19,112 nucleotides of DNA from Oculatellaceae cyanobacterium bins.114 (GCA_033764315.1 JANRJA010000054.1:1-19112), one strand, 5' to 3'; shown: positions 1 through 18,524, counted from the first letter of the stretch. Notes: generated from the sequence alone by a model not told the origin. Made by a program: numbers and translations.

Positions 1-1973
1 TGATCAGCCACGATCGCTAGCGTTGCCAAATCAAACTGATTGCCAATACAGGCGGCCAACTTCAACACGGTCTGGGTAGAGGGGGGCAGTTTTTGCAACT
101 GCTGTGCCATAAACAGCGCGACATCTTCACTGATCGCCAAGGGTTTGATCTGCGCTAAATCACATTCCCAATAGCCCAATTCTCGATTAAAAATAATCAA
201 TCCGTCGCTGTGCAATGCCTTGAGAAACTGGTTAGTGAAAAACGGATTCCCTTGTGTTTTCTGATAGACCAGTTGAGCCAGTGGCAGAGCGGTTTCCACC
301 GAACAACTCAGCGTCTCTGCTATCAGATCATTCATATCCTGCGGCAAGAGGGGCCCCAGGATGAGGGTGTGAGCGATCGCCGGATCGACCTCCTGTAGCG
401 TTAGCATTAAGGGATGACCGGGAGACACTTCGTTATCTCGATAGGCTCCAATGAGCAACAGATGAGAGATGTTTGCCTCAGTTAGCAGCAGTTTAATCAG
501 CGTCAGCGAAGCAGAATCAGCCCATTGTAAATCGTCCAAAAACATCACCAGAGGGTGATCTGGGGTGGTGAGTGCCTGAATGAACTTCTGAAATAGCAGG
601 TTGAATCGGTTTTGGGCTGCCATCCCAGCCAACTCTGGCACAGACGGTTGATCACCAATGATTTGCTCTAATTCTGGAATCACATCCATCAAGACCTGGC
701 TGTTCTCCCCCAGAGCAGTTAAGATGCGGGTGCGCCACTGTTGCAGTTGGGTGTCACTATCACTGAGAATCTGCTGCATCAAGTCTCGTAACGCCTGCAC
801 CAGAGCCGAAAAGGGAATATTGCGTTGGAACTGATCATACTTTCCCTTAATGAAATAGCCCCGCTGACGCACAATCGGCTTGTGTATCTCATTGACCACC
901 GCTGTTTTGCCAATGCCAGAGAAGCCCGCCACTAACACCAACTCGCTGCGGGGTGCTGTCACCTTGCCTGACTGGGCAACCCGATTAAAGGCAGCCAACA
1001 ACTCAGTGACTTCTGCTTGCCGTCCATAAAGCTTTTCTGGAATCACGAAGCGATCGCACAGATCTCGCTGCCCCAACGCAAAAGAGGCGATCGCTCCCGT
1101 TGTTTCCCAAGCGTGTAGACAGGTTGCCAAATCATGTTTCAAGCCTAAAGCACTCTGATAGCGGTCTTCTGCATTTTTCGCCATCAACTTTAAGACAATG
1201 TTTGAAACAGCAGTCGGAATGTTGGTTGTTGAATAGGGCAGGTTAATTTGATCTAGCGGGATGGGCTGCTTAGCCAAGTGACAGTGCACCAATTCCATCA
1301 AATCATCTGAGGGAAAAGGCACCTGCCCCGTCAAAAGTTCATAAAGTGTCACCCCAAATGAGTAAAAATCGGTGCGATAGTCAATCCCTCGATTCATTCG
1401 CCCGGTTTGCTCTGGCGACATGTAAGCCAGCGTGCCTTCTAACCGACTTGGATTTTGAATCTCCTGAGTCTCTCTAGACAACAGGGAAGCAATGGAGAAG
1501 TCAATTAACTTCACCTGATGGGTGTCGGGGTTAATCAGAATATTGGCGGGCTTGATGTCTTTGTGAATGACGCGATATTGATACAGATCATGGAGAATGT
1601 CGGCCATTTGCAGGGCGATCGCTAACACCTCAGTTAACCCTAACGACCACTGCTCAATGTACTGCTCTAGAGAAACGCCACCTACATCTTCCATCACCAG
1701 GGCATAGCCGCTTCCCAGGGGTTCTAAGCTCAAAGGTTGGACGATTCCAGCAACGGGAAGATTTTTGGCGATCGCATATTGATTGTGAAACTGCACCAAT
1801 TCACCAAAGCTTGGATATTCCCGGCGCAACACCTTAATCACCACAGAACGCTGTTGGGCGGTCTGCACCGCGCGATAAACAGCGGTTCTAGACCCCACAT
1901 ACAGTTGCTCAGTGATGGAATAGCCGTCAATGTGAGGTGATGAATGAGAATGGAAGCTCATCGGCAATGTCAT
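1..1973 (-). CDS. 5' part of a multi-domain Ser/Thr protein kinase + AAA ATPase (HstK-like kinase/ATPase/sensor protein); runs off the left edge
   Basis: Not in the ORF track (no stop in window). Read by hand from ATG 1973 (alternative 1961): MTLPMSFHSHSSPHIDGYSITEQLYVGSRTAVYRA...VVIKVL; kinase motifs IHKDIKPANILI, VKLIDFSIA, GTLAYMSPEQTGRMNRGIDYRTDFYS; then P-loop GFSGIGKT and LVMFLDDLQWAD; same frame at the window edge (LAACIGNQFDLATLAIVAD). Confidence 0.93.
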   Translation of the reverse strand, partial: MTLPMSFHSHSSPHIDGYSITEQLYVGSRTAVYRAVQTAQQRSVVIKVLRREYPSFGELVQFHNQYAIAKNLPVAGIVQPLSLEPLGSGYALVMEDVGGVSLEQYIEQWSLGLTEVLAIALQMADILHDLYQYRVIHKDIKPANILINPDTHQVKLIDFSIASLLSRETQEIQNPSRLEGTLAYMSPEQTGRMNRGIDYRTDFYSFGVTLYELLTGQVPFPSDDLMELVHCHLAKQPIPLDQINLPYSTTNIPTAVSNIVLKLMAKNAEDRYQSALGLKHDLATCLHAWETTGAIASFALGQRDLCDRFVIPEKLYGRQAEVTELLAAFNRVAQSGKVTAPRSELVLVAGFSGIGKTAVVNEIHKPIVRQRGYFIKGKYDQFQRNIPFSALVQALRDLMQQILSDSDTQLQQWRTRILTALGENSQVLMDVIPELEQIIGDQPSVPELAGMAAQNRFNLLFQKFIQALTTPDHPLVMFLDDLQWADSASLTLIKLLLTEANISHLLLIGAYRDNEVSPGHPLMLTLQEVDPAIAHTLILGPLLPQDMNDLIAETLSCSVETALPLAQLVYQKTQGNPFFTNQFLKALHSDGLIIFNRELGYWECDLAQIKPLAISEDVALFMAQQLQKLPPSTQTVLKLAACIGNQFDLATLAIVAD

Positions 1974-2786: not shown

Positions 2787-3734
2787 TCAAGGCTTGCGTC
2801 CCACAAGGGTGCGATGGCGAGGATCACTGGGAACGGTGATAATCTGCTTAAACCCGATCGCTTGCAAAGTGGCTTCGAGGTTAAAGGTGTAGTAATCATC
2901 TGACCAGGGTTCTGTGCTCTTCATCAGCGTAAACAGGACAGGCGGCAGATTTTGAATCACAGGGGATTGAGGGTTGTTATCCACGATCGCCAAGCATCCA
3001 CCCGGACGTAAAAGGCGAAACGCTTCCTGAAAGATCGCCGTTGTCGCATGACCGGGCAATTCATGGGTAACAAATTGCAGAGTCACTAAATCAAAAGAGC
3101 AATTGGGCAGGTCAGTCGCTTCCGCATTGGCATGAATCCATTGTGCAATTTCATGGTCTACATCGCGATGCTGAGCAACCGTCAACATGTAAGGAGATAG
3201 ATCTAAACCAACCGTGTGCACAGGGATATCTTGTCTACTCTGGTAGAAGCGATGCACTGCCAAAGTGGAGATGCCAACAGAGCAACCGATATCGAGAATA
3301 TTGTGTACAGGTGACGGGATGAATTGCGCCAGAACGTCATGAAAACTCTGACGAAGTCGCTCTTGTGCAGTCTGCCAGGTTAATGCTTCATTCTTCCAAA
3401 CTCGCAATGCCATCGCGTATGTTGCTGATTCTGCTTCAAAGGCGGCCTGCCAACAGAGATTTCCCTGCTCATAGGCGTGGAATGGTACTTGATAATAGTC
3501 GGGATAGGAAACGGTCGGATTCGTGACTTGAGCCATCTGCTGCTGAATTCCCGATGCTTCCAGTTCCTCATAGTGTTTGCGCCAGGGAACCCCATTTTTT
3601 TCAGCCGTCTGAATTAACACCTGCCGTGCCTGCTGTTTCATCAACGCGTAGAGCGGTTTAGTCTGAATCAAAAGATTGACACAGCGAGAAAGCAAATCAT
3701 CTCCCGCCCAGGCAGGTTTACTCTGAAGAGTCAT
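2787..3734 (-). CDS. Class I SAM-dependent methyltransferase
   Basis: Motif I ILDIGCSVG, VGLDLSPYML, SFDLVT, and LLRPGG post-motif; 315 aa. Confidence 0.9.
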   Translation of the reverse strand: MTLQSKPAWAGDDLLSRCVNLLIQTKPLYALMKQQARQVLIQTAEKNGVPWRKHYEELEASGIQQQMAQVTNPTVSYPDYYQVPFHAYEQGNLCWQAAFEAESATYAMALRVWKNEALTWQTAQERLRQSFHDVLAQFIPSPVHNILDIGCSVGISTLAVHRFYQSRQDIPVHTVGLDLSPYMLTVAQHRDVDHEIAQWIHANAEATDLPNCSFDLVTLQFVTHELPGHATTAIFQEAFRLLRPGGCLAIVDNNPQSPVIQNLPPVLFTLMKSTEPWSDDYYTFNLEATLQAIGFKQIITVPSDPRHRTLVGRKP

Positions 3735-3838: not shown

Positions 3839-5227
3839 CTAAAGAGCTACCCAGGTGCCATGAAAGCCATAGGGAACCCGCTGTGGCATTTGAATACGAG
3901 CGATCGCCTCATCGGTCATAGCTTGAGGGTTAACAATGACCAACTCAGACCTGTCTTGCGTTTCGTCATGCACAAACGTCATCAACCAACCGTCATCTTC
4001 AGAGGTTGCCCCCGGACGTGGCACAAACACACCTTCTCCGCCATAACACCCTGCCCCAAATGAGTGAGCTTGAATACTCTGGTGATCAAAATCAAACTTG
4101 AGTAAGCCATCAAATTTTGGCATCTCTGTGGGCGCACTCTGGCCCGCATAGCCATAGCGGTTTCGCCGTCCTAAATACTGCTCATTAACGCGAGGAAATT
4201 CACAGGGGCGATCGCCCAATGGCTGCTCCTGCACATGTCCTGTTTTTAGATTAAACTGCCAGCGATAGAGCAGTGGCACATCACGCTGAATCTGACGATT
4301 ATCGCCTTCATGAGCACCAGGAGACGCACCTAAAACACTAGTGCTGCCCATGCGACAAGCGATCAAAACAATATCATCTCCTGCTTCATAGGCATTGAGC
4401 GTGTGAAAAACATAGCAACTCGACGCTTCAAACCAGCGAATCGATTGGTTGTCTCCGTGTCGGGGCAAAATGCCAAAGCGACTGGGGCGATCGCCCTCAA
4501 ACATAAACGCAGGCTCTCCCCGCTGAAGTCGTTCTAACCGAAAGGTGAGCGGCAAATCCATAAAAATGGTGTACTGCTCGGTGATGGCAAAGTCATGCAT
4601 CATCACCCCCACCGATAAATCGATCGGGACGGTTTGCAGCAGTTCTCCCTCAGCCGATACAGTGCTGTATTGCACATAGGGTGGCTGTGCCAGAGAGTAA
4701 CCAAAAAACATCATCTCTCCCGTCACCGGGTCAACTTTGGGATGGGCCGTTACCGGAGAAGCCAGCTTGCCATCAAAGGTATAACCTCCAAGCGTGGCTA
4801 GACTGGGCACCTCAATCTCGTGAGGCGCACCCCCTTCCCACAGAGCTAATAGACGGTTTTGCTGTGCTCCGCGACGCTCCACTAGAGCCGTATTCGCAAC
4901 ATTTTTAAAGCCTCCCTGCGTTGGTTCTAGCAACCCACCAAATAACGCTCGCCCAGCTTGCCGCTCTTGTTCAAACCCTTGAGTCCGAATGTAGCGATTG
5001 CGGTAGCTCGCTTTGCCATCTTGAATCTGAACACCATGAAGCATTCCATCTCCATCAAACCAGTGATAGCGACCTAAGGGTGGAAATTGGGGATTGGGGC
5101 CGTTGCGGACAAACATTCCACTCAGGTCAGGTGGCAACTCACCCAAGACTGGCAAGTCATCGACGGTTAACTCTGTTTGAACGGGAGCAAAGTTATCGGT
5201 GAGATAGGGGTTGGAGGTCGTTGTCAT
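3839..5227 (-). CDS. Carotenoid cleavage oxygenase family protein (RPE65/CCD/lignostilbene dioxygenase family)
   Basis: RNGPNP, HWFDGDGM, EFPRVN motifs and four Fe-ligand His contexts (TAHPK, MMHDF, VFHTL, GFHG); co-oriented just upstream of the methyltransferase. Confidence 0.93.
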   Translation of the reverse strand: MTTTSNPYLTDNFAPVQTELTVDDLPVLGELPPDLSGMFVRNGPNPQFPPLGRYHWFDGDGMLHGVQIQDGKASYRNRYIRTQGFEQERQAGRALFGGLLEPTQGGFKNVANTALVERRGAQQNRLLALWEGGAPHEIEVPSLATLGGYTFDGKLASPVTAHPKVDPVTGEMMFFGYSLAQPPYVQYSTVSAEGELLQTVPIDLSVGVMMHDFAITEQYTIFMDLPLTFRLERLQRGEPAFMFEGDRPSRFGILPRHGDNQSIRWFEASSCYVFHTLNAYEAGDDIVLIACRMGSTSVLGASPGAHEGDNRQIQRDVPLLYRWQFNLKTGHVQEQPLGDRPCEFPRVNEQYLGRRNRYGYAGQSAPTEMPKFDGLLKFDFDHQSIQAHSFGAGCYGGEGVFVPRPGATSEDDGWLMTFVHDETQDRSELVIVNPQAMTDEAIARIQMPQRVPYGFHGTWVAL

Positions 5228-5519
5228 GGGTTTGAGAAATAACCTGCTACTCCCTTGTAGCAGAAACCCCCATTTTCTGTGCCAGATTTACTAAAAAGCA
5301 GAGCTAACTGGAAGGATGAAGTCACCCCTAACCCGCGATTTTGTTCATTTCTAGGGCGATCGCCAAATCACTCCCACACCGTTCCTGGTCTGCTAGCCAC
5401 CCAAGCATCGTCACCGATGGGTATTAGCCAAAAAACCAAGAAACACTACAGTCGTTGTGCCTCGGCTCCGTCCCTAGTAGGCTAGAAAAGCCGACTTTTT
5501 GTTCAACGGTGTTCGATTC

Positions 5520-6023
5520 ATGCAAAAAACCCATGCCTTTGCGATCCTTGCTCCTGTCCCAGAGATGCATTTGATCTCAGGGTTAGAGGCGATCGCCACT
5601 CAACTCGACTCTGATGATCTGCCGCCCGATTACCTGCCCAAAGTTGCCTTTGGCAGCATGGATTTTGAGGTTTTTGGTGAGGTCGAAAAGCTGCGGGGAG
5701 GTAAAGCAATCGACGTTTTTATTTATGCGTCTCATGTCAAAGGGGATCAACCTCTAAATCCAGAAGCCACCTGGCGAGGCTTATACGTCGGCTATGTTGC
5801 CTCTCGTCGAGGTCGTTATCCCGGCAAATCGATTTATCGCCCTCAATCGACGGCTACCGATACTCCAACTTGGGCCGTTTTTTGGGAGGTGCAAGAGCTA
5901 GAGTTGCTAAAAACGCCGATTCCAATTGGAAATTTGCGAGGAAAGAATAAGAAAACCAACTATCAAGCTCGATTCATTCCAGAGGGGCCTGTTTTGATTG
6001 AATATCCAGCCATTCGTTCGTGA
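5520..6023 (+). CDS. Hypothetical protein (~167 aa)
   Basis: ORF 5499-6023 with likelier ATG at 5520 (MQKTHAFAILAPVPE...); globular protein-like composition; fills the gap and ends convergent with the kinase at 6038. Confidence 0.75.
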   Translation: MQKTHAFAILAPVPEMHLISGLEAIATQLDSDDLPPDYLPKVAFGSMDFEVFGEVEKLRGGKAIDVFIYASHVKGDQPLNPEATWRGLYVGYVASRRGRYPGKSIYRPQSTATDTPTWAVFWEVQELELLKTPIPIGNLRGKNKKTNYQARFIPEGPVLIEYPAIRS

Positions 6024-6037
6024 CGCGATTGGTGCCC

Positions 6038-7573
6038 TCACGACGACCGTTGAAACTCCGCCAATAGTGTGAATTCTTTTACAACCCCTGCATAAACCTG
6101 TTCATACACTGAGAATAGCTGTTGATAAGTGTGAAACGCCTTGAGGTCAGGGGAGTGGCGATCGCCCATTTGAATGAGTTTCTCTACATCTTCCAGGTGA
6201 GAGATAGCTTGCACCGCATACATCCCTAAAACGGCTGCGCCAAATGCGCTGCCCTCATACACATGGGGCACCAACACCTCAGACCCAAAGAGATCTGCCG
6301 CCATCTGTCGCCACGGTGCTGAGCGAGCAAACCCCCCTGCCGCTCGAATCTCTGGGGCAGTCCCCGCCAGATCTCGCAATGCCAATATGATGCTGTAAAC
6401 CGCAAACAGCACCCCTTCCATAACCGATCGAATGAAGTGAGCTTTGTGATGGTGCAACCCCACTCCAAAAAAAATGCCACGAGCATCTGGATTCCAATAG
6501 GGTGCTCGTTCTCCTGATAAGAAAGGCAAACAGATCAGCCCTTCTGCACCAGGAGCAATTTGGGTCGCGGCTTGCATCATCAAATCATACGGATCAATCC
6601 CTTGCTGTTGGGCTTGCTGCACCTCAAGAGGACAAAAGTTGTCCCGCAGCCAGCGCAAAACAATGCCCCCGTTATTAGAAGGGCCGCCAATCACCCAATG
6701 ATCTTCAGTCAGCGCATAGCAAAACGTTCGTCCCTTCTCATCGGTCAGCGGTTGAGGGATAACAGCACGAACGGCACTACTGGTGCCAATGGTGACCGCA
6801 ATTTGATGGGGTGCGATCGCCCCAACTCCCAAATTAGCCAGACATCCATCATTTGCCCCAACGACAACTGGCGTGTCAGCAGCAAGTCCCATAATCGCGG
6901 CATGCTCTGGTTTCATGCCACGTAAAATATGGGTGGTTGGCACTAATTCACTCAGTTGATCAGCCCGAATTCCTGCGGTCGCCAGGGCTGTTTCATCCCA
7001 CTGAAGTTGTCTTAGATTCAATAGCCCCATAGCAGAGGCGATCGAGTGATCAACTACAAAGCGATTGAGTAATTGATAGAGAACATATTCCTTGATTGAG
7101 ATAAATCGGACGGCACGGTTAAAGACCTCTGGATTCTCTTCTCGGAGCCACATCAGTTTGGGTAAAGGCGACATGGGGTGAATGGGAGTGCCCGTTTGCA
7201 GATAGAGAGAATGTCCTAAAGCGTCCTGTTTTAATCGGATTGTTTGGGCAATACTGCGATTATCTGCCCAGATTATGGCGTGATGCAGCGGATTGCCACT
7301 AGCATCGATCGCAATGACACTGTGCATGGCTCCACTAAAGCTGATGGCTGCAATCTGCGATCGCCCCACACCTGATTGACTCACAGCCTCTCGAATGGCT
7401 GCAATCACCGCTTGAAAAATGGCATTTGGGTCTTGTTCTGCCCAGCCCGGTTGAGGTACTAATAGCGAATAACCCTGGTTTCCCATGCCTTTGACAGCAC
7501 CTGTGGCAGAAAACACAATGGCCTTGGTGCTAGTAGTGCCAATATCAACGCCAATAAAGTAGTCGTGACTCAT
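6038..7573 (-). CDS. gntK: Gluconokinase (FGGY carbohydrate kinase family)
   Basis: IGVDIGTTSTKA, WADNRS, TGTPIHPMSP, GANDG, TIGTSSAVR, GRTFCY, PFLSGERAPYWN, GGFARS motifs typical of Bacillus-type GntK. Confidence 0.85.
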   Translation of the reverse strand: MSHDYFIGVDIGTTSTKAIVFSATGAVKGMGNQGYSLLVPQPGWAEQDPNAIFQAVIAAIREAVSQSGVGRSQIAAISFSGAMHSVIAIDASGNPLHHAIIWADNRSIAQTIRLKQDALGHSLYLQTGTPIHPMSPLPKLMWLREENPEVFNRAVRFISIKEYVLYQLLNRFVVDHSIASAMGLLNLRQLQWDETALATAGIRADQLSELVPTTHILRGMKPEHAAIMGLAADTPVVVGANDGCLANLGVGAIAPHQIAVTIGTSSAVRAVIPQPLTDEKGRTFCYALTEDHWVIGGPSNNGGIVLRWLRDNFCPLEVQQAQQQGIDPYDLMMQAATQIAPGAEGLICLPFLSGERAPYWNPDARGIFFGVGLHHHKAHFIRSVMEGVLFAVYSIILALRDLAGTAPEIRAAGGFARSAPWRQMAADLFGSEVLVPHVYEGSAFGAAVLGMYAVQAISHLEDVEKLIQMGDRHSPDLKAFHTYQQLFSVYEQVYAGVVKEFTLLAEFQRSS

Positions 7574-8164
7574 ATCAAATAAACAGGCTAATGATTAGAC
7601 CCACCAGGAATCCTACACTCCTCAAATGCTGCAACCGCACTATCGTCAGTGGTATCTGATTTTGGGAGACTTTGAGCCTTTGCCAAGGATCTTGCCCCCA
7701 CCTGAAACACCTGCATGGGGGAGATTCCCCCAATGCCTGTTTTCACACACTTGCAACAACTCTGCACCTCATTTACAAGGAAGCAGAGATCTGTTGTACA
7801 CAGTAGCTCTTTGGGAGAGAGTGAGGGCGGATGGCAATTCATGTCTCTGTTCAGCAACACCTTTTTCTCAAGTGAAATTTTAGTTCAGAGTTTAGTTAGC
7901 GAGAGCTACTTCAATAACTTAAAAATTTTGTTCGCACTAAAACTGGGATTCAATCAAGTAACCCCTCAAAATCTATCTCTAGATATAGAGCCAAAAAGCT
8001 CTCTTTAGAAATAAAGTCAGCACGTTGTGAGCAAATTGCGTTTTGGTTTGAAGACTTTAAGTGCTTTGAATGGGATGCCTGTTGAAGCATCAGGACAACG
8101 AATTGAACGCTAAATAAATAGTTTCACCTTCAACTAAACCCATACTTAGTTAATGAGGAATCTG

Positions 8165-8989
8165 ATGAGTACAATTACAACCCAAGACGGCACCCAGATC
8201 TATTACAAAGACTGGGGTACAGGACAGCCCATTGTCTTCAGTCATGGCTGGCCGCTCAACTCTGATAGCTGGGAAGCACAAATGCTTTTTCTGGCCGATC
8301 ACGGATTTCGGGCGATCGCTCACGACCGTCGAGGACATGGGCGATCGAGTCAGCCTTGGAATGGCAACGAGATGGATACCTACGCTGACGATCTGGCAAC
8401 CCTGATCGAAACGCTCGATTTAAAGGACGCTGCTGTATTTGGCTTTTCAACAGGGGGCGGCGAAGTTGCTCGTTATATCGGTCGCTATGGCACCGGACGC
8501 ATTGCCAAAGCTGGTTTGATTTCTGCTGTGCCACCGCTGATGCTAAAGACAGACACAAATCCTGATGGATTACCCATCGACGTATTTAACGGACTTCGTG
8601 CTGCCTCCCTCGCCGATCGCTCAAAGCTCTACCAAGATCTTGCTAATGGCCCGTTCTTCGGCTTCAATCGACCGGGTGCCACCATTTCACAGGGCATGAT
8701 CGACTGGTTTTGGATGCAGGGTATGCAAGCAGGGCACAAGAATGCATTTGATTGCATCAAAGCCTTTTCTGAAACTGATTTCACAGAAGATCTTAAAAAG
8801 TTCGATGTGCCCACGCTGATCATTCATGGTGATGATGACCAAATTGTGCCGATCGGCACCGCCGCTCTAGCAAGTGCAAAATTGGTACCCAATGCCACTC
8901 TAAAGGTTTATTCTGGGGCACCTCACGGTTTAACCGATACGCATAAAGAGCAACTGAATGCAGATCTCCTCTCCTTTCTTAAGGGCTAA
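8165..8989 (+). CDS. Non-heme haloperoxidase/perhydrolase-type alpha/beta hydrolase (Cpo family)
   Basis: [22 protein letters not shown], nucleophile elbow [16 protein letters not shown] and APHG give a Ser-Asp-His triad; ATG 8165 (alternative 8153). Confidence 0.92.
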
Positions 8990-9208: not shown

Positions 9209-9736
9209 TCAAAGCTTTGTCGTAAATCGTAACCACCGCTGAATTCCCTGATTTAACCCGCGCGAAACGGGTTTGACCGGGTTGAGAGAGTAAGACTCTC
9301 GCCGAGTTGATTTTGCCACGGGTTCAGCTTTGAGGGGAATATCCAAAACAGTGACAAACGCCTGCCCCGAAGCTGCATTGGAGACAGCCGAGGCCGTGGT
9401 GGTTGAGGCCGTGGTGGTCGAGGCAGTGGTGATCGAGGCAGCCACTGTTGGGTCAGCAGGAATAGCCTTGAACAGCTTACTACATACCAGATCGGCAAAT
9501 TCACTGTCAAAGTGATGTTGTGGACGACCATTGAGATACCAATTCAATAAGATGTTATCGACCGAAGCAACCTTATAGCGTCCCTGAAAGATAGCTTCTA
9601 CTACTGCTGCGATCGCCCATTTAGGAGGATATTCCTCTAACCAGCCTTGTACAATCTGCTCAATGTCATATCCACCCAGATCAAAACTGTAGTAGCTCAA
9701 AAGCGCAGAAATAGATGCAGCAGGACTTCTAGACAT
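9209..9736 (-). CDS. Conserved cyanobacterial hypothetical protein, DnaD/DnaB_2-like helical domain (paralogue 1) with low-complexity tail
   Basis: YSFDL...W..EY...W...AVVEAIFQGRYKVASVDNILLNW...G.P..HFD.EFADLVC; 50 of the first 88 residues identical (ungapped, hand count) to the ORF at 12430. The DnaD-like call is inference. Confidence 0.8.
   Translation of the reverse strand: MSRSPAASISALLSYYSFDLGGYDIEQIVQGWLEEYPPKWAIAAVVEAIFQGRYKVASVDNILLNWYLNGRPQHHFDSEFADLVCSKLFKAIPADPTVAASITTASTTTASTTTASAVSNAASGQAFVTVLDIPLKAEPVAKSTRRESYSLNPVKPVSRGLNQGIQRWLRFTTKL
9390..9440. repeat. 15-bp tandem repeat (~3.4 units) encoding ASITT-ASTTT-ASTTT-AS
   Basis: GAGGCCGTGGTGGTT / GAGGCCGTGGTGGTC / GAGGCAGTGGTGATC / GAGGCA. 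Confidence 0.9.
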
Positions 9737-9843: not shown

Positions 9844-10422
9844 CTACTCGTCGTACAACATGGCATGGCATTCCGGTGGAGAGTGGGGGCCTGTCAGCGT
9901 AAAAACATCGTAATCACTCTGGTCATAGTTGCGGTCAGGATAGTACAACACGACTGCTGATTCCTCAGGGCGGTTATTGGCGATCGCCATCACGCAATCG
10001 GGATCAAGCAATCGTTTGCGTTCAATATAGGCAATTTCTGGTCCCTCGTTGGTTTCAGTAAACACAACCGCTCCAGGGCCATAGTGTTTATAGCCTTTCC
10101 ACGAGAGTGCCAAAATTTGATCGCAATATCTCGCCACTTTTTGCATGAGATGTTGTGGGGCTGAGCTGGTTGCCGCTTCCTCCACCACAGGAGGGTTGAT
10201 GTCATCAGGCACCCACTCCAGCAAATCGCCTGGTTGACAGTTGAGAGCAGCACAAATTCCATTCAGGCGATCGGGAGCTAAGCGAGGCATTTCATCCACC
10301 TTGCGCAACCGATAAACAGAATTTTCAGTAATGTCTAACGCTTCTGCAAGATCTTTGTTGCGCACCCGGTTGCGTGCCATTACCTCATTGAGCTTCCAGC
10401 GGATCACGTCAAATTGCTGCAT
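9844..10422 (-). CDS. Xre/Cro-C1 family (HTH_26-type) transcriptional regulator with an extra C-terminal domain
   Basis: IRWKLNEVMARNRVRNKDLAEALDITENSVYRLRK...LNGICAALNCQPGDLLEW is a classic HTH_26 pattern; ATG 10422 (alternative TTG 10437); ~100-aa unrecognised C-terminal domain. Confidence 0.9.
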   Translation of the reverse strand: MQQFDVIRWKLNEVMARNRVRNKDLAEALDITENSVYRLRKVDEMPRLAPDRLNGICAALNCQPGDLLEWVPDDINPPVVEEAATSSAPQHLMQKVARYCDQILALSWKGYKHYGPGAVVFTETNEGPEIAYIERKRLLDPDCVMAIANNRPEESAVVLYYPDRNYDQSDYDVFTLTGPHSPPECHAMLYDE

Positions 10423-10464
10423 AGAAGTACGATTCAAGTTTACTATTCTCAGCCTAAAGTAGAT

Positions 10465-10493
10465 ACTCTACGTGAGATGACGATTTTTGTAAA
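10465..10493 (-). promoter_or_regulatory. Predicted sigma70-type promoter of the Xre gene
   Basis: Minus strand TTTACA-N17-TAGAGT; the spacer/-10 overlaps a degenerate operator copy (TCTACGT-gag-ATGACGA, 10467-10483). Confidence 0.6.
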
Positions 10494-10501
10494 TTATAAG
10501 G

Positions 10502-10533
10502 TTGACATTAATCTACGTTAGACGTAGATTAAT
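10502..10533 (+). promoter_or_regulatory. Sigma70-type promoter with overlapping perfect palindromic operator
   Basis: TTGACA (10502-10507)-N17-TAGATT (10525-10530); ATTAATCTACGT-tag-ACGTAGATTAAT (10507-10533) is a perfect 12-bp inverted repeat. Confidence 0.8.
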
Positions 10534-10607
10534 AAACATTAGACAGGCGGTTGGGTTTTCTACATCTGTGCGCCCCTAGCACTGCCTTCTAACTCACCCA
10601 ATATTCA

Positions 10608-11027
10608 ATGGAGTTTTATATGACATCTGCTCAGCCTACTCAGTCTGCGGCTCAAACGCGTGCGTCTGTTGATCTAACCGCGGCAACCCCTAACTCTTCG
10701 GTCTCTGCTGAGGTGACACAACCCCATCCTGGAAATCAAACTCATTTCAAATCGGCGGGAGAAGATCGAGGATCAGGTCGGGTGCAATTGGCGCAACCGA
10801 TTCCTTTATCTAAGTCGTGTCGCTCCAAAATAAAACAGCCTATGGACAATAATTCACTCAGATTGATTGCCATCGGTTCTCGACAAACCTTGATCAACAA
10901 CATGAAAATGCTTCACATGTTGAACTATGCCGAAATTGGAGCTTGGAGCAAACTCCAACGTGGTCCTAATCCTGGAGAGTTTATGAGTGTTTTAACCCTG
11001 CGATCGCCCCATCCCTGGATCTCATAA
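10608..11027 (+). CDS. Hypothetical protein with internal RGSGR motif and a cyanobacterial-type C-terminal domain
   Basis: 139 aa (alternative start 10620); EDRGSGR with RGSGR at 10767-10781; the C-terminal LIAIGS...LHMLNYAEIGAWSKLQRGPNPGEFMSVL resembles a small cyanobacterial family I recall lying divergent from Xre genes. Confidence 0.8.
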   Translation: MEFYMTSAQPTQSAAQTRASVDLTAATPNSSVSAEVTQPHPGNQTHFKSAGEDRGSGRVQLAQPIPLSKSCRSKIKQPMDNNSLRLIAIGSRQTLINNMKMLHMLNYAEIGAWSKLQRGPNPGEFMSVLTLRSPHPWIS

Positions 11028-11071: not shown

Positions 11072-11668
11072 GTGCAATTCTTTTCTAACCGCCTTGGCAA
11101 CGTTTCCAATCCACACCAATCCTATGAATATGAGGATGCGTACCAGGATGAGGCCAGGTATGCCAATCACCACAGTCACTATAGCCATGATTACAACGCT
11201 AGCTATGACAATGGCTACAATAACAGGCCAGATGAGCATTACATGGGTGGTTCCTCCTATTCCAATAGACCGCACTATCAATCGGGTGATGCCAATACTT
11301 ATGCCAGGGGCGATTACCCGCCGCGATCGCCCTATCCCAATTCCACTACTCCGACACCGGGCAACCGTAGCTCAGGAGCAGCCAGCAAGTTTACTCACAT
11401 TGCCGAAGCAGGTCATCGAATCACTGAGGTATTGGTCATAGAACCCACTTCCTTTGAAGAAATACCGTCTGTGGTTCAAGCATTACGAGATTACAAATCT
11501 GTAGTGTTAAATCTAGCTGCCATGAGTCCAGACTATACACAACGGGCTATTGACTTTATCACAGGTGGTACTCATGCCATGGATGGAAATTATGAACGCA
11601 TTGGTGAAGGAATTTTTTTGTTCACCCCAAGTTGCGTTCAAGTTAGTACTCAAGCCCACTCCACTTAA
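11072..11668 (+). CDS. sepF: Cell division protein SepF family paralogue
   Basis: C-terminal EVLVIEPTSFEEIPSVVQALRDYKSVVLNL...QRAIDFITGGTHAMDGNYERIGEGIFLFTPSCVQVS is the SepF core; GTG start, short amphipathic N-terminus (MQFFSNRLGNV), long Y/H/N/D/S-rich linker. Confidence 0.88.
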   Translation: MQFFSNRLGNVSNPHQSYEYEDAYQDEARYANHHSHYSHDYNASYDNGYNNRPDEHYMGGSSYSNRPHYQSGDANTYARGDYPPRSPYPNSTTPTPGNRSSGAASKFTHIAEAGHRITEVLVIEPTSFEEIPSVVQALRDYKSVVLNLAAMSPDYTQRAIDFITGGTHAMDGNYERIGEGIFLFTPSCVQVSTQAHST

Positions 11669-11717: not shown

Positions 11718-12335
11718 GATAAACACTCTTGAAAGTGCTCTATATCTATCTCCTAACGCTCAAAAAACACGTCTTGATAGGGTGGTGAATCACTGAGATA
11801 TTGCTAAGTTAAAGCATAACTTTTGCAAAGGCATTTTACGCAATACGCTTACATTAAGCAATCAATCAGCATGAATTGCACAAATCAAATTAAGCTTATT
11901 CCATTTAGCAGAGCAAATTACTAACTGAATGGGTAGCTTTTTTCATTGACTCAGTTTTCTTTTTAGCCCCTATAGTAATTATTGCTATCGGAAGCAAAAT
12001 CATCGACTGCTTCTCCAAAAAATAATCAAACTCATTTTTATCAACTAAATTAAAACAGCTCTAGATCACAAAATTAGTTCTATTGTAAAAGACTTTATGC
12101 TGTACCTGTCAGAAGAATTGAAGGTTAATTATTTCACAGCATGAATTAGAGCAGGGTCAAAAAGTCGATTGGAAAGTAAGATGTTTTATGTATAGACACT
12201 TTACAATTTGAGGCAAAATGCGGGGCTGCGAGGAAAGATTCGTCGCTTAAAAATACAGAATGGCAGTACCATAAGTCTCCCCTGTCAAAGTTTTCGTAAC
12301 GGTTTAAACATAGAGTAAACACAACAGATTAGTAT

Positions 12336-12375
12336 GAGGGCTGATCCTCATATGGGGTGTCACCCTCTTTTTTTT
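12336..12375 (+). terminator. Intrinsic-terminator-like hairpin with T8 tract in the leader of the 12430-16903 gene run
   Basis: GAGGG-c-TGA-t-CCTC-atat-GGGG-tg-TCA-CCCTC followed by TTTTTTTT. Confidence 0.5.
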
Positions 12376-12429: not shown

Positions 12430-12762
12430 ATGCGACACAATCCATCTGCATCTACCTCCGTTCTACTAACCCATTACTGTTTTGATTTAGAAGAACAGAC
12501 AACTGAAGAAGTCGTGAGAAACTGGTTAGCTGAATATCCTGCTAAGTGGGTTCTCTCAGCAATTGTTGAAGCACTCTATCAAGGACGCTATAAAGTTGCA
12601 TCGGTTGAAAAAATTCTGTTTCATTGGCGTCTTCGGGGTCAGCCAACAAGCCATTTTGATCGAGAGTTTGCTGACTTGGTCTGTTGTAATTTGTTGCGTA
12701 GGGCACGATTAAGAGCACAGAAAATGAGAGCCAGACAGACCCTTTTAGACGCGATCGCCTAG
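12430..12762 (+). CDS. Conserved cyanobacterial hypothetical protein, DnaD/DnaB_2-like helical domain (paralogue 2)
   Basis: 110 aa; AIVEALYQGRYKVASVEKILFHWRLRGQPTSHFDREFADLVC; ~57% identical to 9209-9736 over 88 aa; basic C-terminal helix. Confidence 0.82.
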   Translation: MRHNPSASTSVLLTHYCFDLEEQTTEEVVRNWLAEYPAKWVLSAIVEALYQGRYKVASVEKILFHWRLRGQPTSHFDREFADLVCCNLLRRARLRAQKMRARQTLLDAIA

Positions 12763-12857: not shown

Positions 12858-13682
12858 ATGTCTACTTGTTCTGTGAGTCCATCTAATGTTGACATCGATA
12901 CCTATTTTGATACGCTGGATTTCGATGTCTATGATTTTGATGTAACAGCTACCTTAATTAAAGCGAGCAATTCTGACTGCAAATTTCGATTACCTGTCCC
13001 TGCCTATCCCGTTACTCATTCCGAAAGCAAAGCACCCCACCGACAACTTGCTTTAGAGCAGGCCGCCTATGAAGTCAGCTTACTCGCTCGACAGTTAGAC
13101 AGCTCACCCTTCATCCTTGAGCCTTTTGAAGACATCTATCGAGTTACAAATCCACACCGGGCTAAATCTCGGTCGGCTCTGCGCCATCTATCTGCTATTG
13201 TTTTAGGGCTGACCGTATCTATCCTCCCGGTGTATGCCTATTACAGTCACTGCTCAACAGCGATGTCGTGTCTCTATGGGGCTAAGCATCAACTGATGGG
13301 AGTGGTTAGCGGCGCGAAGCAGTTTCTCCGTTGGGGCGATCGCCCTCCAACCATGCAGGCACTATCCAACACGATCTCTAGTGCTCAAACACCTGTCCCC
13401 GTTAGTGATCCCTTCAGAGAAGCTGTCAACCAAGCCACACGAGCCGCTGAGCTAACCCAAACAGCAACCCAAGCAGCCGACTGGGAAACAGTCACCAACA
13501 GTTGGTTAGAAGCGATTCGATTGATGAACTTAACACCCTCTACCAATCCTCGATATAGTACAGCTGCACTCAAAGTTGAGGAATATGCCAAGAATCTAGC
13601 CTATGCTCAACGCCGCTTGAGAGAAGCCACTCACCTAACTGAAACCCAGACCACTTCATCTCCAGCCAAGCAGATTGAGTAA
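12858..13682 (+). CDS. Hypothetical single-pass membrane protein with C-terminal alpha-helical domain
   Basis: Hydrophobic segment LSAIVLGLTVSILPVYAYY; C-terminal DPFREAVNQATRAAELTQTA...W...W.EAI.LM...P...PRY..A..KV.EY..NL.YAQ, a pattern common in cyanobacterial hypothetical proteins. Confidence 0.78.
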   Translation: MSTCSVSPSNVDIDTYFDTLDFDVYDFDVTATLIKASNSDCKFRLPVPAYPVTHSESKAPHRQLALEQAAYEVSLLARQLDSSPFILEPFEDIYRVTNPHRAKSRSALRHLSAIVLGLTVSILPVYAYYSHCSTAMSCLYGAKHQLMGVVSGAKQFLRWGDRPPTMQALSNTISSAQTPVPVSDPFREAVNQATRAAELTQTATQAADWETVTNSWLEAIRLMNLTPSTNPRYSTAALKVEEYAKNLAYAQRRLREATHLTETQTTSSPAKQIE

Positions 13683-13710: not shown

Positions 13711-15825
13711 ATGAAATACCAACGAGCTATGTTATCAGGAGCAGATGTGGTCAAAACACTAGCCTTAAGCATTTTTCAAATGCTGTTTGAGTCTAGTAGC
13801 AGAGTACTCTATCAACTCAACGAATCACTCCAACAAGAAGTATTCAAAGCGTCTAATAAATACAACCAAAACTACTCTGAACGACACGGCACACTCAAGG
13901 TGTTGGGGATGCGAGAGCCAATTCCACTGGAATCGGTGTATATTGCAGTGCAGTTTTTAGACAACAACACGATTCGTCGGTTTGAAACCATCGAAGCGTT
14001 AGAGAATGTCTATCGTCAGGCACAGCAGCGAAGCCTTTATAACGGGGTGGGCAAGCGTAAATCTGGGCTAGAAGTAGCCAATCAAACCCAATATATGATG
14101 GTCTTGGGTGGACCTGGGATGGGGAAGTCTACTTTTTTACGCAAGGTGGGGCTAGAGATCTTGACCCACAATCAACCACCTTGTTTTCAACATGACTGCA
14201 TTCCTGTGTTGATTGAGCTAAAAGAGTTTCGGTTGAGCGACATCAACATTGAGGGGGCGATCGCCAACGAGTTTGAAACCTGCGGATTCCCATATCACCA
14301 AAAATTTACTCGGGCAGCCCTGGAGCAAGGAAAGCTACTCATTTTGTTAGATGGACTGGATGAAGTCCCTGCCGAACGGATGAGTGAAGCCATTGCTAAA
14401 ATTCGCAACTTTGTCGATCGCTATGACAAAAATCGCTTTATCATTTCCTGTCGGATCGCCGCTTATCGGCACAACTTTCGTCGGTTTACCGATGTTGAAA
14501 TTGCAAATTTTGACGATCAACAGATTTATCAGTTTATTCAACATTGGTTTGCTCACGATGCTTACAAAGGGCAAGAGTGTTGGACAAAGTTAGTGAGTAG
14601 TGACTATGCAGCCGCTAAAGAGTTAACCCATACACCGCTCTTATTAACCCTGACCTGTTTGCTCTATCAACGGGCAGGTCAGTTTCCGACTAATCGAGCC
14701 ACCCTCTACGAAAAAGCACTCCGCACTCTGTTAGAAGAGTGGTCTGGAGAGAAAGGGCTTCCTCAAGCCTCTCTGTATCGCGGACTCGATACAAAACGAA
14801 AGGAACTCATGATCTCTAAGATTGCCTATGATGCCTTTCAAAACAATCGTTTCTTTTTGTCTAGACGCGAGCTTGCCAGTCAAATTGAGCATCTGTTGAA
14901 AGAAATGCTGCCAGATGAACCCTTCATTGACGGGTATGCGGTTTTGAAGTCTATCGAAGTTCACCACGGTATTTTGGTAGAACGAGCTGAAGGCATCTAT
15001 TCGTTTTCTCACTTAACACTGCAAGAGTTTTTGACGGCTCAGCACATCATCGACACTCGACAAGATGTTCAAGAGGTGGTGGTGCAACATTTGGTAGATC
15101 ATCACTGGCGAGAGGTGTTTTTGTTATTAGCGGGATTGCAACAAGCTGATGAGTTGCTGGTCATGATGGAGAAACAGGCGACTAGTCTGATTCAGACACC
15201 CAATCTGCGTAACTTGCTAACCTGGGCAGATCAGATCACTACCGGATCTGAAGGAAGCTATAAACCTGTTGTCAAACGGGCGATCGCCATGTTCTTAGCA
15301 CTCGATTTGGCTCAAGCTTTAGCACTGGATCAGGCACGAGTCAGAGCTTTAAATTTGGATATCGATCGCGCTCGTAATCTTGCCCTGGCACTTGACCACA
15401 CCCTGACATTAAATCGGGCACTTGATTTGGCATTGGTGCGGGCACTCGACCTGTCTCGTGCGCTCGATCTAGTCATAGACATTGCCCATAAATTTGAAGA
15501 GATCAAAATTTTTCACCTGGTCAAATTTAATGTGCTAATTGCTTGGCTAGATGCACTAAAAGTTAAAGCTCCCCATTACCAAAAAACGTTGGCATCCCGT
15601 AAAGCATTTATTGAACAAGTTCATCAAACCTGGTTAAATGCACTCAATCTACATCGAGAATGGATCAATTTGTCACGCAGCGAAGTCACAGCCCTCGATC
15701 AATATCTTTTCGCAAATCTGTTAATAGTTCAGTGTAGGCGATCGGCTGTATGGGTTTCACCCCAAACCTGGGAAACGATTGAGGATAAAATCATGCGGGT
15801 TAGTGCAACCTATACTAATCTATAG
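13711..15825 (+). CDS. NACHT-domain STAND NTPase
   Basis: Walker A GGPGMGKST, Walker B LLILLDGLDE, ISCR, TPLLLTL, YSFSHLTLQEFLTA, WREVFLL; C-terminal (R)ALDLA-type repeats and helical domain. Confidence 0.93.
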   Translation: MKYQRAMLSGADVVKTLALSIFQMLFESSSRVLYQLNESLQQEVFKASNKYNQNYSERHGTLKVLGMREPIPLESVYIAVQFLDNNTIRRFETIEALENVYRQAQQRSLYNGVGKRKSGLEVANQTQYMMVLGGPGMGKSTFLRKVGLEILTHNQPPCFQHDCIPVLIELKEFRLSDINIEGAIANEFETCGFPYHQKFTRAALEQGKLLILLDGLDEVPAERMSEAIAKIRNFVDRYDKNRFIISCRIAAYRHNFRRFTDVEIANFDDQQIYQFIQHWFAHDAYKGQECWTKLVSSDYAAAKELTHTPLLLTLTCLLYQRAGQFPTNRATLYEKALRTLLEEWSGEKGLPQASLYRGLDTKRKELMISKIAYDAFQNNRFFLSRRELASQIEHLLKEMLPDEPFIDGYAVLKSIEVHHGILVERAEGIYSFSHLTLQEFLTAQHIIDTRQDVQEVVVQHLVDHHWREVFLLLAGLQQADELLVMMEKQATSLIQTPNLRNLLTWADQITTGSEGSYKPVVKRAIAMFLALDLAQALALDQARVRALNLDIDRARNLALALDHTLTLNRALDLALVRALDLSRALDLVIDIAHKFEEIKIFHLVKFNVLIAWLDALKVKAPHYQKTLASRKAFIEQVHQTWLNALNLHREWINLSRSEVTALDQYLFANLLIVQCRRSAVWVSPQTWETIEDKIMRVSATYTNL

Positions 15826-15912: not shown

Positions 15913-15946
15913 GTCGTGAGCGTTAAAATGTTTGTTTGTTATTAAA

Positions 15947-16903
15947 ATGTCAGACCAAATTTCGTATTCAAACTCTATATCTGGAAGGAACATCAATCAT
16001 TATACCAATCATGATTTGAAGGCTTTTGAGATCCCTAACTCCTGTGCAACCGATCAGATCTTGATCCGACTAGCAATTAATATCATGCAGGGTGGGGGAC
16101 ATCGCTATGGTGCTTTTTTAGATGCCGCTATGACGGCTGCAAAGTTTGCGATCTATACAACCTATCTCAGTGAAGGAAAAAACTTTCGCAAGACGGGGCT
16201 GTTGCACCACGTTGAACCCAAACGGGTGAAGACCATTGTTCAAGAAGTGGAGTCTGCCTTAACAGAAGGCAAATTGCTCAAAACCCTGGCCTCACAAGAG
16301 CCCTACTACTTAATTTGTCTTCCCCATCTGTGGTTAAAAAAGTATCCCTGGACTCCGGTTCAGCCTCGATTGCCGATGATTGGCTTAACACAGGAAGAAA
16401 AGTTGGAGGTTGAAGCGTCTCTGCCAGATAACTTACCAAACGCCTTGGTCACTACAGAGTTTCAATTTATGGAACTGATTGAACTGCTGCATTTAGAATC
16501 ACAGAAAGATTTACCAGATGCGCATCGCGTTCCCCTCAGCGATGCCCTAATTGAGCATATCAAGTTGCGGTTACTCTACTCTGGTACAGTAGTGCAAGTT
16601 CACTCGCCACGAGGGTTTCCCTTTTATTGTCTGGCACGCACCTCTTATTCTCCTCAAGATGAGCGAGAACGGATCTATACCATGTTTGAGGATGTAGACG
16701 GTTTTTTTCAACTCTTACAGGCTTGGGTTAATAAGGAGCCTGGGGTTTTACGAGGGTTAGAAGTCTTTGAAGTAGAGCTTGAGCGCAAAGACGAAGCCCT
16801 GCAAGAATTGGACAAACTCATTCAAGCCTGGGCCGACAAATATCATCAAGAAGGCGGACAGCCTATGGTTTTGCACTTAGCCGCAGGTACTATTACAAAG
16901 TAG
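15947..16903 (+). CDS. hetR: Divergent HetR-family transcriptional regulator (probable hetR paralogue)
   Basis: GHRYGAFLDAAMTAAK, HHVEPKRVK, EGKLLKTLASQEP, EHIKLRLLYSGTV, ELDKLIQAWADKYHQEGG align collinearly with HetR; ATG 15947 (ORF track TTG 15932); N-terminal extension relative to the 299-aa HetR. Confidence 0.93.
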   Translation: MSDQISYSNSISGRNINHYTNHDLKAFEIPNSCATDQILIRLAINIMQGGGHRYGAFLDAAMTAAKFAIYTTYLSEGKNFRKTGLLHHVEPKRVKTIVQEVESALTEGKLLKTLASQEPYYLICLPHLWLKKYPWTPVQPRLPMIGLTQEEKLEVEASLPDNLPNALVTTEFQFMELIELLHLESQKDLPDAHRVPLSDALIEHIKLRLLYSGTVVQVHSPRGFPFYCLARTSYSPQDERERIYTMFEDVDGFFQLLQAWVNKEPGVLRGLEVFEVELERKDEALQELDKLIQAWADKYHQEGGQPMVLHLAAGTITK

Positions 16904-17190: not shown

Positions 17191-17925
17191 TTATTCCTGA
17201 TATAGATCAGGAAACTGCTCTCGAAGCTGATCAATTTGGGGTAAGTCATGCAACACCACATAGAGATTGTGTGGATTGCGAGCAATGAAGTCTTGATGAT
17301 AGCTCTCAGCCGCATAGAACCCCTCTAAAGGAGTCAGTTGAGTCACAATTGAGTGATCAAAAACATGGGCTTGATTGAGTTGATCAATATAAGCTTGCGC
17401 CACTTGTCGCTGCTCAGGATTTGCAAAAAAGATAGCTGAGCGATATTGCGTTCCGACATCTGGCCCTTGTCGATTTAATTGCGTAGGATCATGGGCTACC
17501 GCAAAGTAAACCTTGAGCAACTCTCCATAGGAAACTTGTGATGGGTCATAGGTGATTTCTACTGATTCTGCATGGGTTGTCACTCCAGAACTAACATCTG
17601 GATAGTATGCCGAATCTGCACTCCCCCCGGCGTAACCTGTGACAACTTTGGACACTCCTTGCACATGCTCAAACACTCCTTCCATGCCCCAAAAACAACC
17701 CCCTGCAAAAACGGCTGTTTGTTCGGTTGTCTGTTCTCCTGCAACAGCCAGTGAAATACCAGTTGTAGGGTCAGGAAACGTCGCTGCCGTCGCAGAGCTA
17801 GATGCATTAGCCGTTAACCCCAACCGAATAACACTGTATGCCAGAGCGATCGCCATCAACGACAAGAGGGGTAAACGACGCAGCAGAAAATTGAAATTAG
17901 AAGGTGCAGAGCGGTGAACTGACAT
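17191..17925 (-). CDS. msrA: Peptide-methionine (S)-S-oxide reductase with N-terminal signal/anchor
   Basis: [50 protein letters not shown]; hydrophobic N-terminal segment after LLRRLP; ATG 17925 (alternative TTG 17946). Confidence 0.95.
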
Positions 17926-18029
17926 AGGGATAAAATTCTCCAACAATTGAACGATAGTGATATCAAAATCAAACTCAACGCAACAGGACAGATCGTCCTC
18001 TAAAAGTCATGAGTTTAATGCTGATAGAC

Positions 18030-18524
18030 TTATCCTGAAATAAATTGCAGAGCAATTCCATTCATGCAATAGCGTTTTCCAGTCGGTGCAGGACCATCAT
18101 CAAATACATGTCCTAAATGTCCACCACAACGACGACAATGTACCTCAATGCGCGTCATAAACAAAGAATAATCTTCAGAAGTGCGAACAGCATTTTCAAG
18201 GGGTGCATAGAAACTGGGCCAACCCGTACCACTATTAAATTTGGTGTTTGAAGAGAACAAAGGCAGGTCACAGCCCGCACAATTATAAGTACCCGGAGCG
18301 TATTGCTCAGCCAGTGGACTACTAAAAGGTAGCTCTGTACCTCTTTGTCGCAGCACATTGAACTGACTGGGTGTCAAAATTTCGCGCCATTCTGCTTCTG
18401 TCTTAGTAATCTCAAATCCTTCTCCCGAAGCGGTTTCAGCTTCTGCCCCTAAAATGCCAGAGCGAGATAGCAAGATCACGCCCACGGCTGCCGCCCCTGT
18501 TTGTAAGAAATAACGTTTCTTCAT
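18030..18524 (-). CDS. msrB: Peptide-methionine (R)-S-oxide reductase with Tat-like signal
   Basis: GTELPFS, Zn sites CAGC and CRRC, SGTGWPSF, HLGHVFDDGP, RYCMNG; N-terminus MKKRYFLQ followed by a hydrophobic stretch. Confidence 0.95.
   Translation of the reverse strand: MKKRYFLQTGAAAVGVILLSRSGILGAEAETASGEGFEITKTEAEWREILTPSQFNVLRQRGTELPFSSPLAEQYAPGTYNCAGCDLPLFSSNTKFNSGTGWPSFYAPLENAVRTSEDYSLFMTRIEVHCRRCGGHLGHVFDDGPAPTGKRYCMNGIALQFISG

Follow-up and report, generated by a model that had tools for sequence, protein, structure and literature searches.

Results and discussion

Gene content of the locus

The window analyzed here, by which we mean the whole stretch of 19,112 nucleotides from Oculatellaceae cyanobacterium bins.114, contains a run of eight genes in the order DnaD-like, Xre, RGSGR carrier, SepF-like, DnaD-like, 274-aa protein, NACHT and HetR-like (Table 1). 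The genes on either side are ordinary and are not syntenic with those of the Crinalium locus described below. A hetR homologue at about 5 kb had been proposed in the first-pass annotation, and it is indeed present: the only HetR-family gene of the window encodes a protein with Peptidase_S48 and HetR_C domains, and starts 5.2 kb downstream of the RGSGR motif. The two DnaD-like genes flank xre, the carrier gene and the SepF-like gene, and their products, judged through their Crinalium counterparts, are about 55-60% identical over the first 90 residues; among the ESM Atlas neighbours of protein A is a cluster with the automatic name 'putative DnaD domain-containing protein'. The SepF-like gene is probably co-transcribed with the carrier gene. 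Its product has an N-terminal region of roughly 115 residues rich in Tyr, Asn, His and Pro, and the occurrence of a paralogue of a cell-division protein (SepF) within a HetR-like cluster is suggestive. None of the eight cluster proteins matches a defence model in PADLOC.

Table 1. Coordinates of the genes and sequence features of the window (L001 is the corresponding locus of a Crinalium genome bin)
Feature	Position	Strand	Remarks
Ser/Thr kinase fused to AAA_16 ATPase	3-1973	-	Runs off the window
Methyltransferase	2787-3734	-	Flank
RPE65-type carotenoid oxygenase	3839-5227	-	Flank
Putative 174-aa ORF	5499-6023	+	TTG start; no Pfam or NCBIfam match
FGGY sugar kinase	6038-7573	-	Flank
Alpha/beta hydrolase	8153-8989	+	Flank
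DnaD-like protein A	9209..9736	-	First gene of the cluster; weak Pfam DnaB_2 match, below cut-off; 71% identical in L001
Xre-type regulator	9844..10437	-	Divergently transcribed; Pfam HTH_26 (E 3.9e-19) and unassigned C-terminal half; 84% full-length identity in L001
Second small palindrome, GTAGATACTCTAC	10459..10471	.	TCTAC/GTAGA half-site in common with the 10507-10533 palindrome; identical in L001
Perfect palindrome ATTAATCTACGT-N3-ACGTAGATTAAT, candidate Xre operator	10507..10533	.	12-bp arms kept in L001, centre varies
RGSGR carrier gene	10620..11027	+	135 aa; mechanical ORF from 10608, 139 aa; homologues in protein searches
EDRGSGR motif	10761..10781	+	Invariant RGSGR core at 10767-10781
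Beta-alpha-beta C-terminal domain	10854..11003	+	Residues 83-132 (139-aa numbering); predicted by AlphaFold2
SepF-like protein	11072..11668	+	Pfam SepF (E 6.4e-23, residues 120-191); 44 nt downstream of the carrier gene; syntenic in L001
HetR-box-like palindrome GGGTGTCACCC, form GGGN5CCC	12355..12365	.	65-75 nt upstream of DnaD-like B; GGGGTGTCACCC at 12354-12365
DnaD-like protein B	12430..12762	+	Paralogue of A; kept in L001; Pfam DnaB_2 below cut-off
274-aa protein, no known family	12858..13682	+	No Pfam match even at E <= 1; 50% identical in L001
NACHT-type STAND NTPase	13711..15825	+	Pfam NACHT, NCH2; 85% identical in L001, best-conserved gene of the cluster
HetR-like regulator	15932..16903	+	Likely start ATG 15947, 318 aa; Pfam Peptidase_S48 (E 9e-66), HetR_C (E 4e-22)
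MsrA	17191-17946	-	Flank; MsrA/MsrB order as listed
MsrB	18030-18524	-	Flank; MsrA/MsrB order as listed

A scan of 185,579 species genomes, carried out with narrow patterns that probably missed distant carriers, recovered 20 loci. Only one of these, in the Crinalium genome bin (L001), encodes a carrier, and there the full set of eight genes is present in unchanged order, with 50-85% identity between the proteins (50% for the two carriers). The other 19 loci encode relatives of the C-terminal domain without the motif, and contain none of the cluster genes. The co-location with hetR to which the first-pass annotation drew attention is thus conserved synteny in a second genome and not coincidence. 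Further, P0080, P0082 and P0085, the closest HetR-like proteins among the best 120 of 1,547 HetR matches, share their longest-contig values (411784, 178715 and 9041) with the carriers P0003, P0007 and P0006, respectively, and both P0080 and P0003 (value 411784) are from Oscillatoria sp. FACHB-1407. For seven carriers on contigs of at least 10 kb (16081, 15930, 13620, 17312, 10645, 57228 and 15501), no HetR partner of equal contig value was present among the 120 of 1,547 HetR matches listed. The DNA context of the carriers described here comes from two loci, the window and L001, together with the three coincidences of contig size.

The RGSGR carrier

Translation of the ORF at 10608-11027 confirmed that the plus-strand codons GAA GAT CGA GGA TCA GGT CGG at 10761-10781 encode E-D-R-G-S-G-R, as had been read initially. 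In a six-frame scan of the whole window RGSGR occurs just this once and no other form of RG[ST]GR is found; across 22 fetched loci (six frames, 275,265 bases), the sole RG[ST]GR is that of the Crinalium orthologue of the carrier. Given the amino-acid composition of the 4,932 residues in the 16 annotated proteins, the expected number of chance occurrences of RGSGR is 0.0034, or 0.0004 with a preceding acidic residue, which agrees with the earlier rough estimate of near or below 1%.

The gene itself is real, and only the start originally assigned to it, 10608, needs revision: ATG 10620 is probably the correct one, because a GGAG at 10611-10614 and this ATG are both kept in Crinalium, in which the triplet corresponding to ATG 10608 is not in frame. 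The resulting 135-aa form is likewise that of the database's gene call (P0002). Both candidate starts lie upstream of the motif, which disposes of the objection, anticipated in the first-pass annotation, that the true start might lie downstream of it. Within the 135-aa protein the motif occupies residues 50-54 and is followed by 81 residues to the C-terminus. No hydrophobic N-terminal segment is apparent, the maximal 15-residue Kyte-Doolittle mean being 0.30 for segments starting in the first 40 residues, and neither this protein nor six other carriers produced any match to models from Pfam (E <= 0.01), NCBIfam or PADLOC.

Conservation of the motif across the carrier family

The first protein search recovered 8 proteins at E <= 0.01 from 11 candidates, one being the window's own. 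In an alignment of 9 close sequences RGSGR is invariant (9/9), the adjoining residues are variable and the C-terminal 55 residues are nearly identical. An exhaustive search of representatives enlarged the set to 72 proteins at E <= 0.001; the motif is present in 21 of them, including 18 of the 19 best, and the remaining 51 are mostly proteins of 67-120 aa that match the C-terminal domain alone. The motif-less exception among the 19 best, P0016, consists of two C-terminal domains in tandem. In alignment A2, which comprises 27 carriers, the mean column identity is 20%, with RGSGR invariant in 27/27 and every other invariant column located in the C-terminal domain. A profile search added 10 further carriers (P0200-P0209), in all of which RGSGR is again invariant. 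This profile search, the third of the protein database, returned 28 proteins and missed members of its own query alignment, and hence it undercounts the family.

All 40 motif instances in the 37 distinct carriers are exactly RGSGR. The residue preceding the motif is G, D or E in 37/40 and the one following it V, L or I in 34/40. The distance from the end of the motif (the last one, where there is more than one) to the C-terminal domain is 24-35 residues in 32/37 carriers, with no conservation of the linker sequence. Between the window and Crinalium synonymous differences affect three of the five motif codons, leaving the amino acids unchanged. The comparison of orthologues suggested in the first-pass annotation thus favors its proposal, in that RGSGR is retained without change in all close orthologues amidst diverging flanks. 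As judged from these alignments, the invariance of RGSGR, its variable flanks and the synonymous codon changes demonstrate strong purifying selection on the motif as a peptide. Three carriers (P0018, P0023 and P0075) have two copies of RGSGR, and a subgroup of 12 members (P0041, P0052 and P0200-P0209) carries an additional domain at the N-terminus in which Trp, Cys and His residues are conserved.

Domain architecture

An AlphaFold2 model of the carrier built on the 27-sequence alignment leaves residues 1-80 without secondary structure (mean pLDDT 54-70 per 10-residue block), consistent with the disordered N-terminal half assumed at the outset, and predicts a strand at 83-90, a helix at 92-104 and a second strand at 125-132, with pLDDT of 90-98 over 83-132. 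The carrier therefore displays the defining trait of the proposed family, namely a disordered segment with an invariant RGSGR, followed by a conserved beta-alpha-beta domain. A Foldseek search of the PDB with this model returned nothing at E <= 0.001. The C-terminal domain comes closest to MinE, a regulator of cell division, at a non-significant E of 0.058 (TM 0.24/0.40), and going by the model this is probably a generic beta-alpha-beta likeness.

In the ESM Atlas the C-terminal domain groups with short cyanobacterial hypothetical proteins; one of these clusters bears the automatic label 'peptide ABC transporter substrate-binding protein', for which we found no supporting evidence here. The short proteins form an unnamed cyanobacterial family of about 70-110 aa with the same beta-alpha-beta domain and the pattern IGS...LH.L.[YF]A...WS...GE.MS.L. 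Unlike the carrier, they are without the disordered extension and RGSGR (19/20 genome loci; 51/72 representatives) and lie outside the HetR-like cluster (19 loci). In 9 of these 19 loci the motif-less relative adjoins an HTH gene, five being divergent small HTH_3 genes and four DUF7662-HTH genes (e.g. L002, 889-1158 on the minus strand beside 1280-1534 on the plus strand). This domain family is thus repeatedly found paired with Xre-type regulators. A protein of roughly 700 aa with FG-GAP repeats follows in 9 motif-less loci (L002-L020). A plasmid protein search produced no HetR-like gene and only six motif-less relatives of the C-terminal domain, two of whose neighbourhoods were uninformative.

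Candidate regulatory DNA

Of the 180 bp that separate xre from the carrier gene, the stretch from the xre start to position 10540 is nearly the same in the window and Crinalium. The larger palindrome overlaps a promoter-like TTGACA-17-TAGATT (10502-10530, a 10-of-12 match), and the smaller one overlaps a promoter-like site of xre on the minus strand, TTTACA-17-TAGAGT (10493-10465). Because conserved palindromes lie over promoter-like sites, it is reasonable to infer that the carrier gene is under Xre control, so that the designation 'Xre-controlled' in the first-pass annotation is plausible.

A GGGnnnnnCCC requirement of HetR and the hetP box have been described (PMC4192349). The HetR-box-like palindrome upstream of DnaD-like B has a counterpart, GGGTCACACCC, at the equal relative place in Crinalium, in a conserved block (window 12334-12366; L001 3390-3420) with unconserved DNA upstream of it. 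GGGN5CCC is not enriched window-wide (5 found versus 3.1 expected, with 42 of 200 shuffles reaching 5), and only the positionally conserved site at 12355 was retained. In the window a palindrome of the form ATGAGG-N6-CCTCAT, half of which is conserved in Crinalium, precedes this site, and a following T-run gives it a weak terminator score. Another GGGN5CCC, at 15752-15762 in the 3' end of the NACHT gene and about 190 nt before the hetR-like gene, aligns with L001 6940-6950; its conservation may simply be coding. The DIF1 sequence TCCGGA has no match in the whole window.

The HetR-like neighbour as candidate target

The HetR-like protein of the window matches solved HetR structures with an E of 9e-110, and its two Pfam domains and its DNA- and PatS-contact residues mark it as a member of the HetR superfamily; its score of 383 bits against the NCBIfam HetR equivalog NF009718 is below the cut-off of 489 and places it outside that equivalog. 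To define its affinities we compared 120 sequences, comprising the window protein and 119 of the 120 matches listed (the best 120 of 1,547), with P0081, the shorter call of the window protein, left out. In this set 82 of the 120 are 75-99% identical to a Nostocaceae HetR, and the other 38 are 46-61% identical to it, the window protein being at 54%. A FastTree phylogeny (a quick method, with midpoint root) separates the canonical (82) and divergent (38) sets by one branch with a support of 100, and places the window protein in a six-member clade, also with a support of 100, outside the 82-member canonical clade. Hence the first-pass annotation was right as to family membership, and the protein is not canonical HetR. 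As the HetR homologue linked to the carrier lies outside the canonical clade, the target of the carrier is probably, on this comparison, the HetR paralogue rather than the master regulator HetR.

A comparison of functional positions showed that: 1) The DNA contacts R62, H69, K73 and R74 are kept in 38/38 divergent proteins. 2) R223, E253 and D278 are likewise kept in 38/38 and D270 in 37/38. In HetR both arginines of the PatS hexapeptide (PatS6) form bonds with E253, D270' and D278', the substitutions E253A or D270A/D278A abolish binding of PatS6, and R223W raises its Kd from 12 nM to 2.4 uM, about 200-fold weaker (PMC4649674). 3) The residues corresponding to the clamp of the free N-terminus of PatS6 differ: E254 is present in 79/82 canonical proteins versus 0/38 divergent ones, being V in the window protein, and D256 is replaced by E in the window clade. 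4) C48 is replaced in 30/38 divergent proteins, and S152 in 29/38 versus 1/82 canonical proteins. Thus the window protein resembles HetR in its two Pfam domains, its DNA-contact residues and the PatS-binding R223, E253, D270 and D278, and differs from it in overall identity, in the replacement of C48, S152 and E254, and in lying beyond the branch of support 100. When two HetR-like chains (residues 6-323, A4) were co-folded with two chains of the carrier (5-139, A2), without controls, the score was 0.00, which we count neither for nor against binding.

Relationship to known RGSGR proteins

The RGSGR carriers named in the literature consulted are PatS, PatX and HetN (PMC7761841, PMC12756182, PMC13342950, PMC5812504), all of them studied as inhibitors of a single master regulator, HetR. 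The carrier had initially been set apart from all three, and this distinction holds. With PatS it shares RGSGR, the part that binds the hood domain of HetR (PMC4649674, PMC7761841), and an acidic residue before the motif as in ERGSGR. PatS of Anabaena PCC 7120 has 17 aa and the motif at its C-terminus (PMC13342950), unlike the 135-aa carrier, where 81 residues, a folded domain among them, follow the internal motif. PatX, like the carrier, is a small protein with RG(S/T)GR; it occurs together with hetR in filamentous cyanobacteria, those without heterocysts included, and its gene is sometimes next to hetR (PMC7761841, PMC11298460). A Sec signal peptide and a DIF1 promoter are characteristic of PatX, which undergoes export and PatP cleavage (PMC12756182, PMC7377430); the carrier, by contrast, has no hydrophobic N-terminus, a candidate Xre operator in place of TCCGGA, and a motif far from its C-terminus. 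HetN resembles the carrier in that RGSGR is internal to a larger protein (PMC7761841). It is a putative ketoacyl reductase (PMC4649674), in contrast to the carrier, which has no Pfam family (E <= 0.01), no reductase fold and, as its sole fold, the 50-residue beta-alpha-beta domain.

Going by these sequence features, the carrier is a member of a previously undescribed, unnamed family of predicted cytoplasmic RGSGR proteins. Neither this family nor a hetR-paralogue cluster was found in the literature searched, and a prior mention in Elhai and Khudyakov 2018 (PubMed 29885033) is possible. The role of HetR and RGSGR proteins in non-heterocystous cyanobacteria is described as an open question (PMC12669612, PMC11298460). 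A fourth carrier family, with a new architecture and a link to a HetR paralogue, makes this question testable with a defined protein pair, operator and candidate target site, and offers a natural case for asking if RGSGR works as a tethered internal motif.

A proposed antagonist of the HetR paralogue and its alternatives

We favor, with moderate confidence, the interpretation that the protein is a fourth kind of RGSGR carrier, which acts as the cognate antagonist of the HetR paralogue and is gated by the Xre repressor. In its support are the selection on the motif, the shared gene order, and the retention of the pocket and the DNA-contact residues in the HetR-like protein; the operator-like palindrome over the promoter-like site, the HetR-box-like site of conserved position and the regular spacing of motif and domain also speak for it. 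We envisage the following mechanism: 1) The disordered N-terminal half would present RGSGR as a short linear motif about 24-35 residues before the folded domain. 2) The RGSGR segment would dock in the hood-domain cleft of the HetR-like dimer of the cluster. 3) Docking would release this dimer from GGGN5CCC sites, as PatS does with HetR. 4) One such site upstream of the operon ending in the hetR-like gene would give rise to an activator-inhibitor loop. 5) The Xre-type repressor, acting via the promoter palindrome, would set the timing of the inhibitor and of the SepF-like gene behind it. The whole carrier would then be a tethered, cell-autonomous ligand, although the domain may instead be required for processing. 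Both the conservation of the C-terminal domain and its nearly fixed distance from the motif point to such a tethered ligand rather than a PatS-like free peptide, and a tethered internal motif also accords with this spacing and with the absence of the clamp residue E254.

Several observations stand against an antagonist of this type. Extension of PatS6 at its N-terminus to at least 7 residues should hinder binding sterically (PMC4649674), and cytosolic full-length PatX gave no two-hybrid interaction with HetR, the PatX hexapeptide being reported to bind it (PMC12756182); hence an internal motif in a 135-aa protein may need processing, and the cluster contains no evident protease gene. The positions that clamp the N-terminus of PatS6 are also altered, with E254 lost throughout the divergent set and D256 changed to E. 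The restriction of the DNA context to two loci and three coincidences of contig size, the seven carriers on longer contigs with no partner of equal contig value among the 120 of 1,547 HetR matches listed, and the absence of TCCGGA from the window likewise count against it. It is conceivable that the carrier is a precursor cleaved to a short XRGSGR peptide, which diffuses along the filament as a morphogen acting on the HetR-like protein, canonical HetR or both, and that the domain serves for processing or stability only. The case made for a hexapeptide as the mature ligand, with poorer binding of peptides extended further at the N-terminus (PMC4649674), the dependence of PatX on PatP cleavage (PMC12756182), and the preferences at the two positions adjoining the motif, which could be cleavage determinants, agree with a precursor. 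We nevertheless regard it as unlikely, since the carrier has neither a signal peptide nor a hydrophobic N-terminus, no protease gene is evident and no exporter gene is present in the cluster, and a near-constant distance between motif and domain (32/37) is unexpected for simple excision.

The motif might also be unrelated to HetR, serving as a contact motif for Xre, the SepF-like protein or RNA, or as a modification site, with the pentapeptide shared by convergence. The motif-less domain family is widespread and found beside an HTH gene in 9/19 loci, which would make an Xre-type regulator its possible ancestral partner; PatX is largely HetR-independent in one non-heterocystous strain (PMC11298460); and the genomic context seen is that of the near carriers. 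An exact HetR-binding pentapeptide without a variant in 40 instances, a chance expectation of about 0.003 RGSGR per window, and a conserved cluster whose HetR-family protein has retained the RGSGR-binding pocket render this quite improbable in our assessment. A chance occurrence of RGSGR in a non-functional or mis-called ORF has nothing in its favor beyond the shortness of the motif. Its invariance in 37 distinct proteins with a mean identity of 20% rules this out for practical purposes, and the synonymous codon differences, the conserved ribosome-binding site and start codon, and the confidently folded domain in the same protein are equally at odds with it, so that we give it virtually no weight.

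Going beyond the favored interpretation of the carrier as an antagonist of the HetR paralogue, we tentatively raise the possibility, itself rather doubtful, that the cluster is a self-contained second activator-inhibitor module in some non-heterocystous filamentous cyanobacteria. In such a module a HetR paralogue auto-activated via the HetR-like box, and a dedicated non-diffusing inhibitor tethered by its folded domain, would be combined with a SepF paralogue, a NACHT NTPase and two DnaD-like proteins, and would control a non-heterocyst choice of cell fate or division, for example filament breakage or necridia. If so, the partnership of HetR and RGSGR would be a duplicable modular switch and not a single ancient pair. 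Three hetR-like ORFs have been noted in Leptolyngbya BL0902, and hence multiple copies do occur (PMC11298460).
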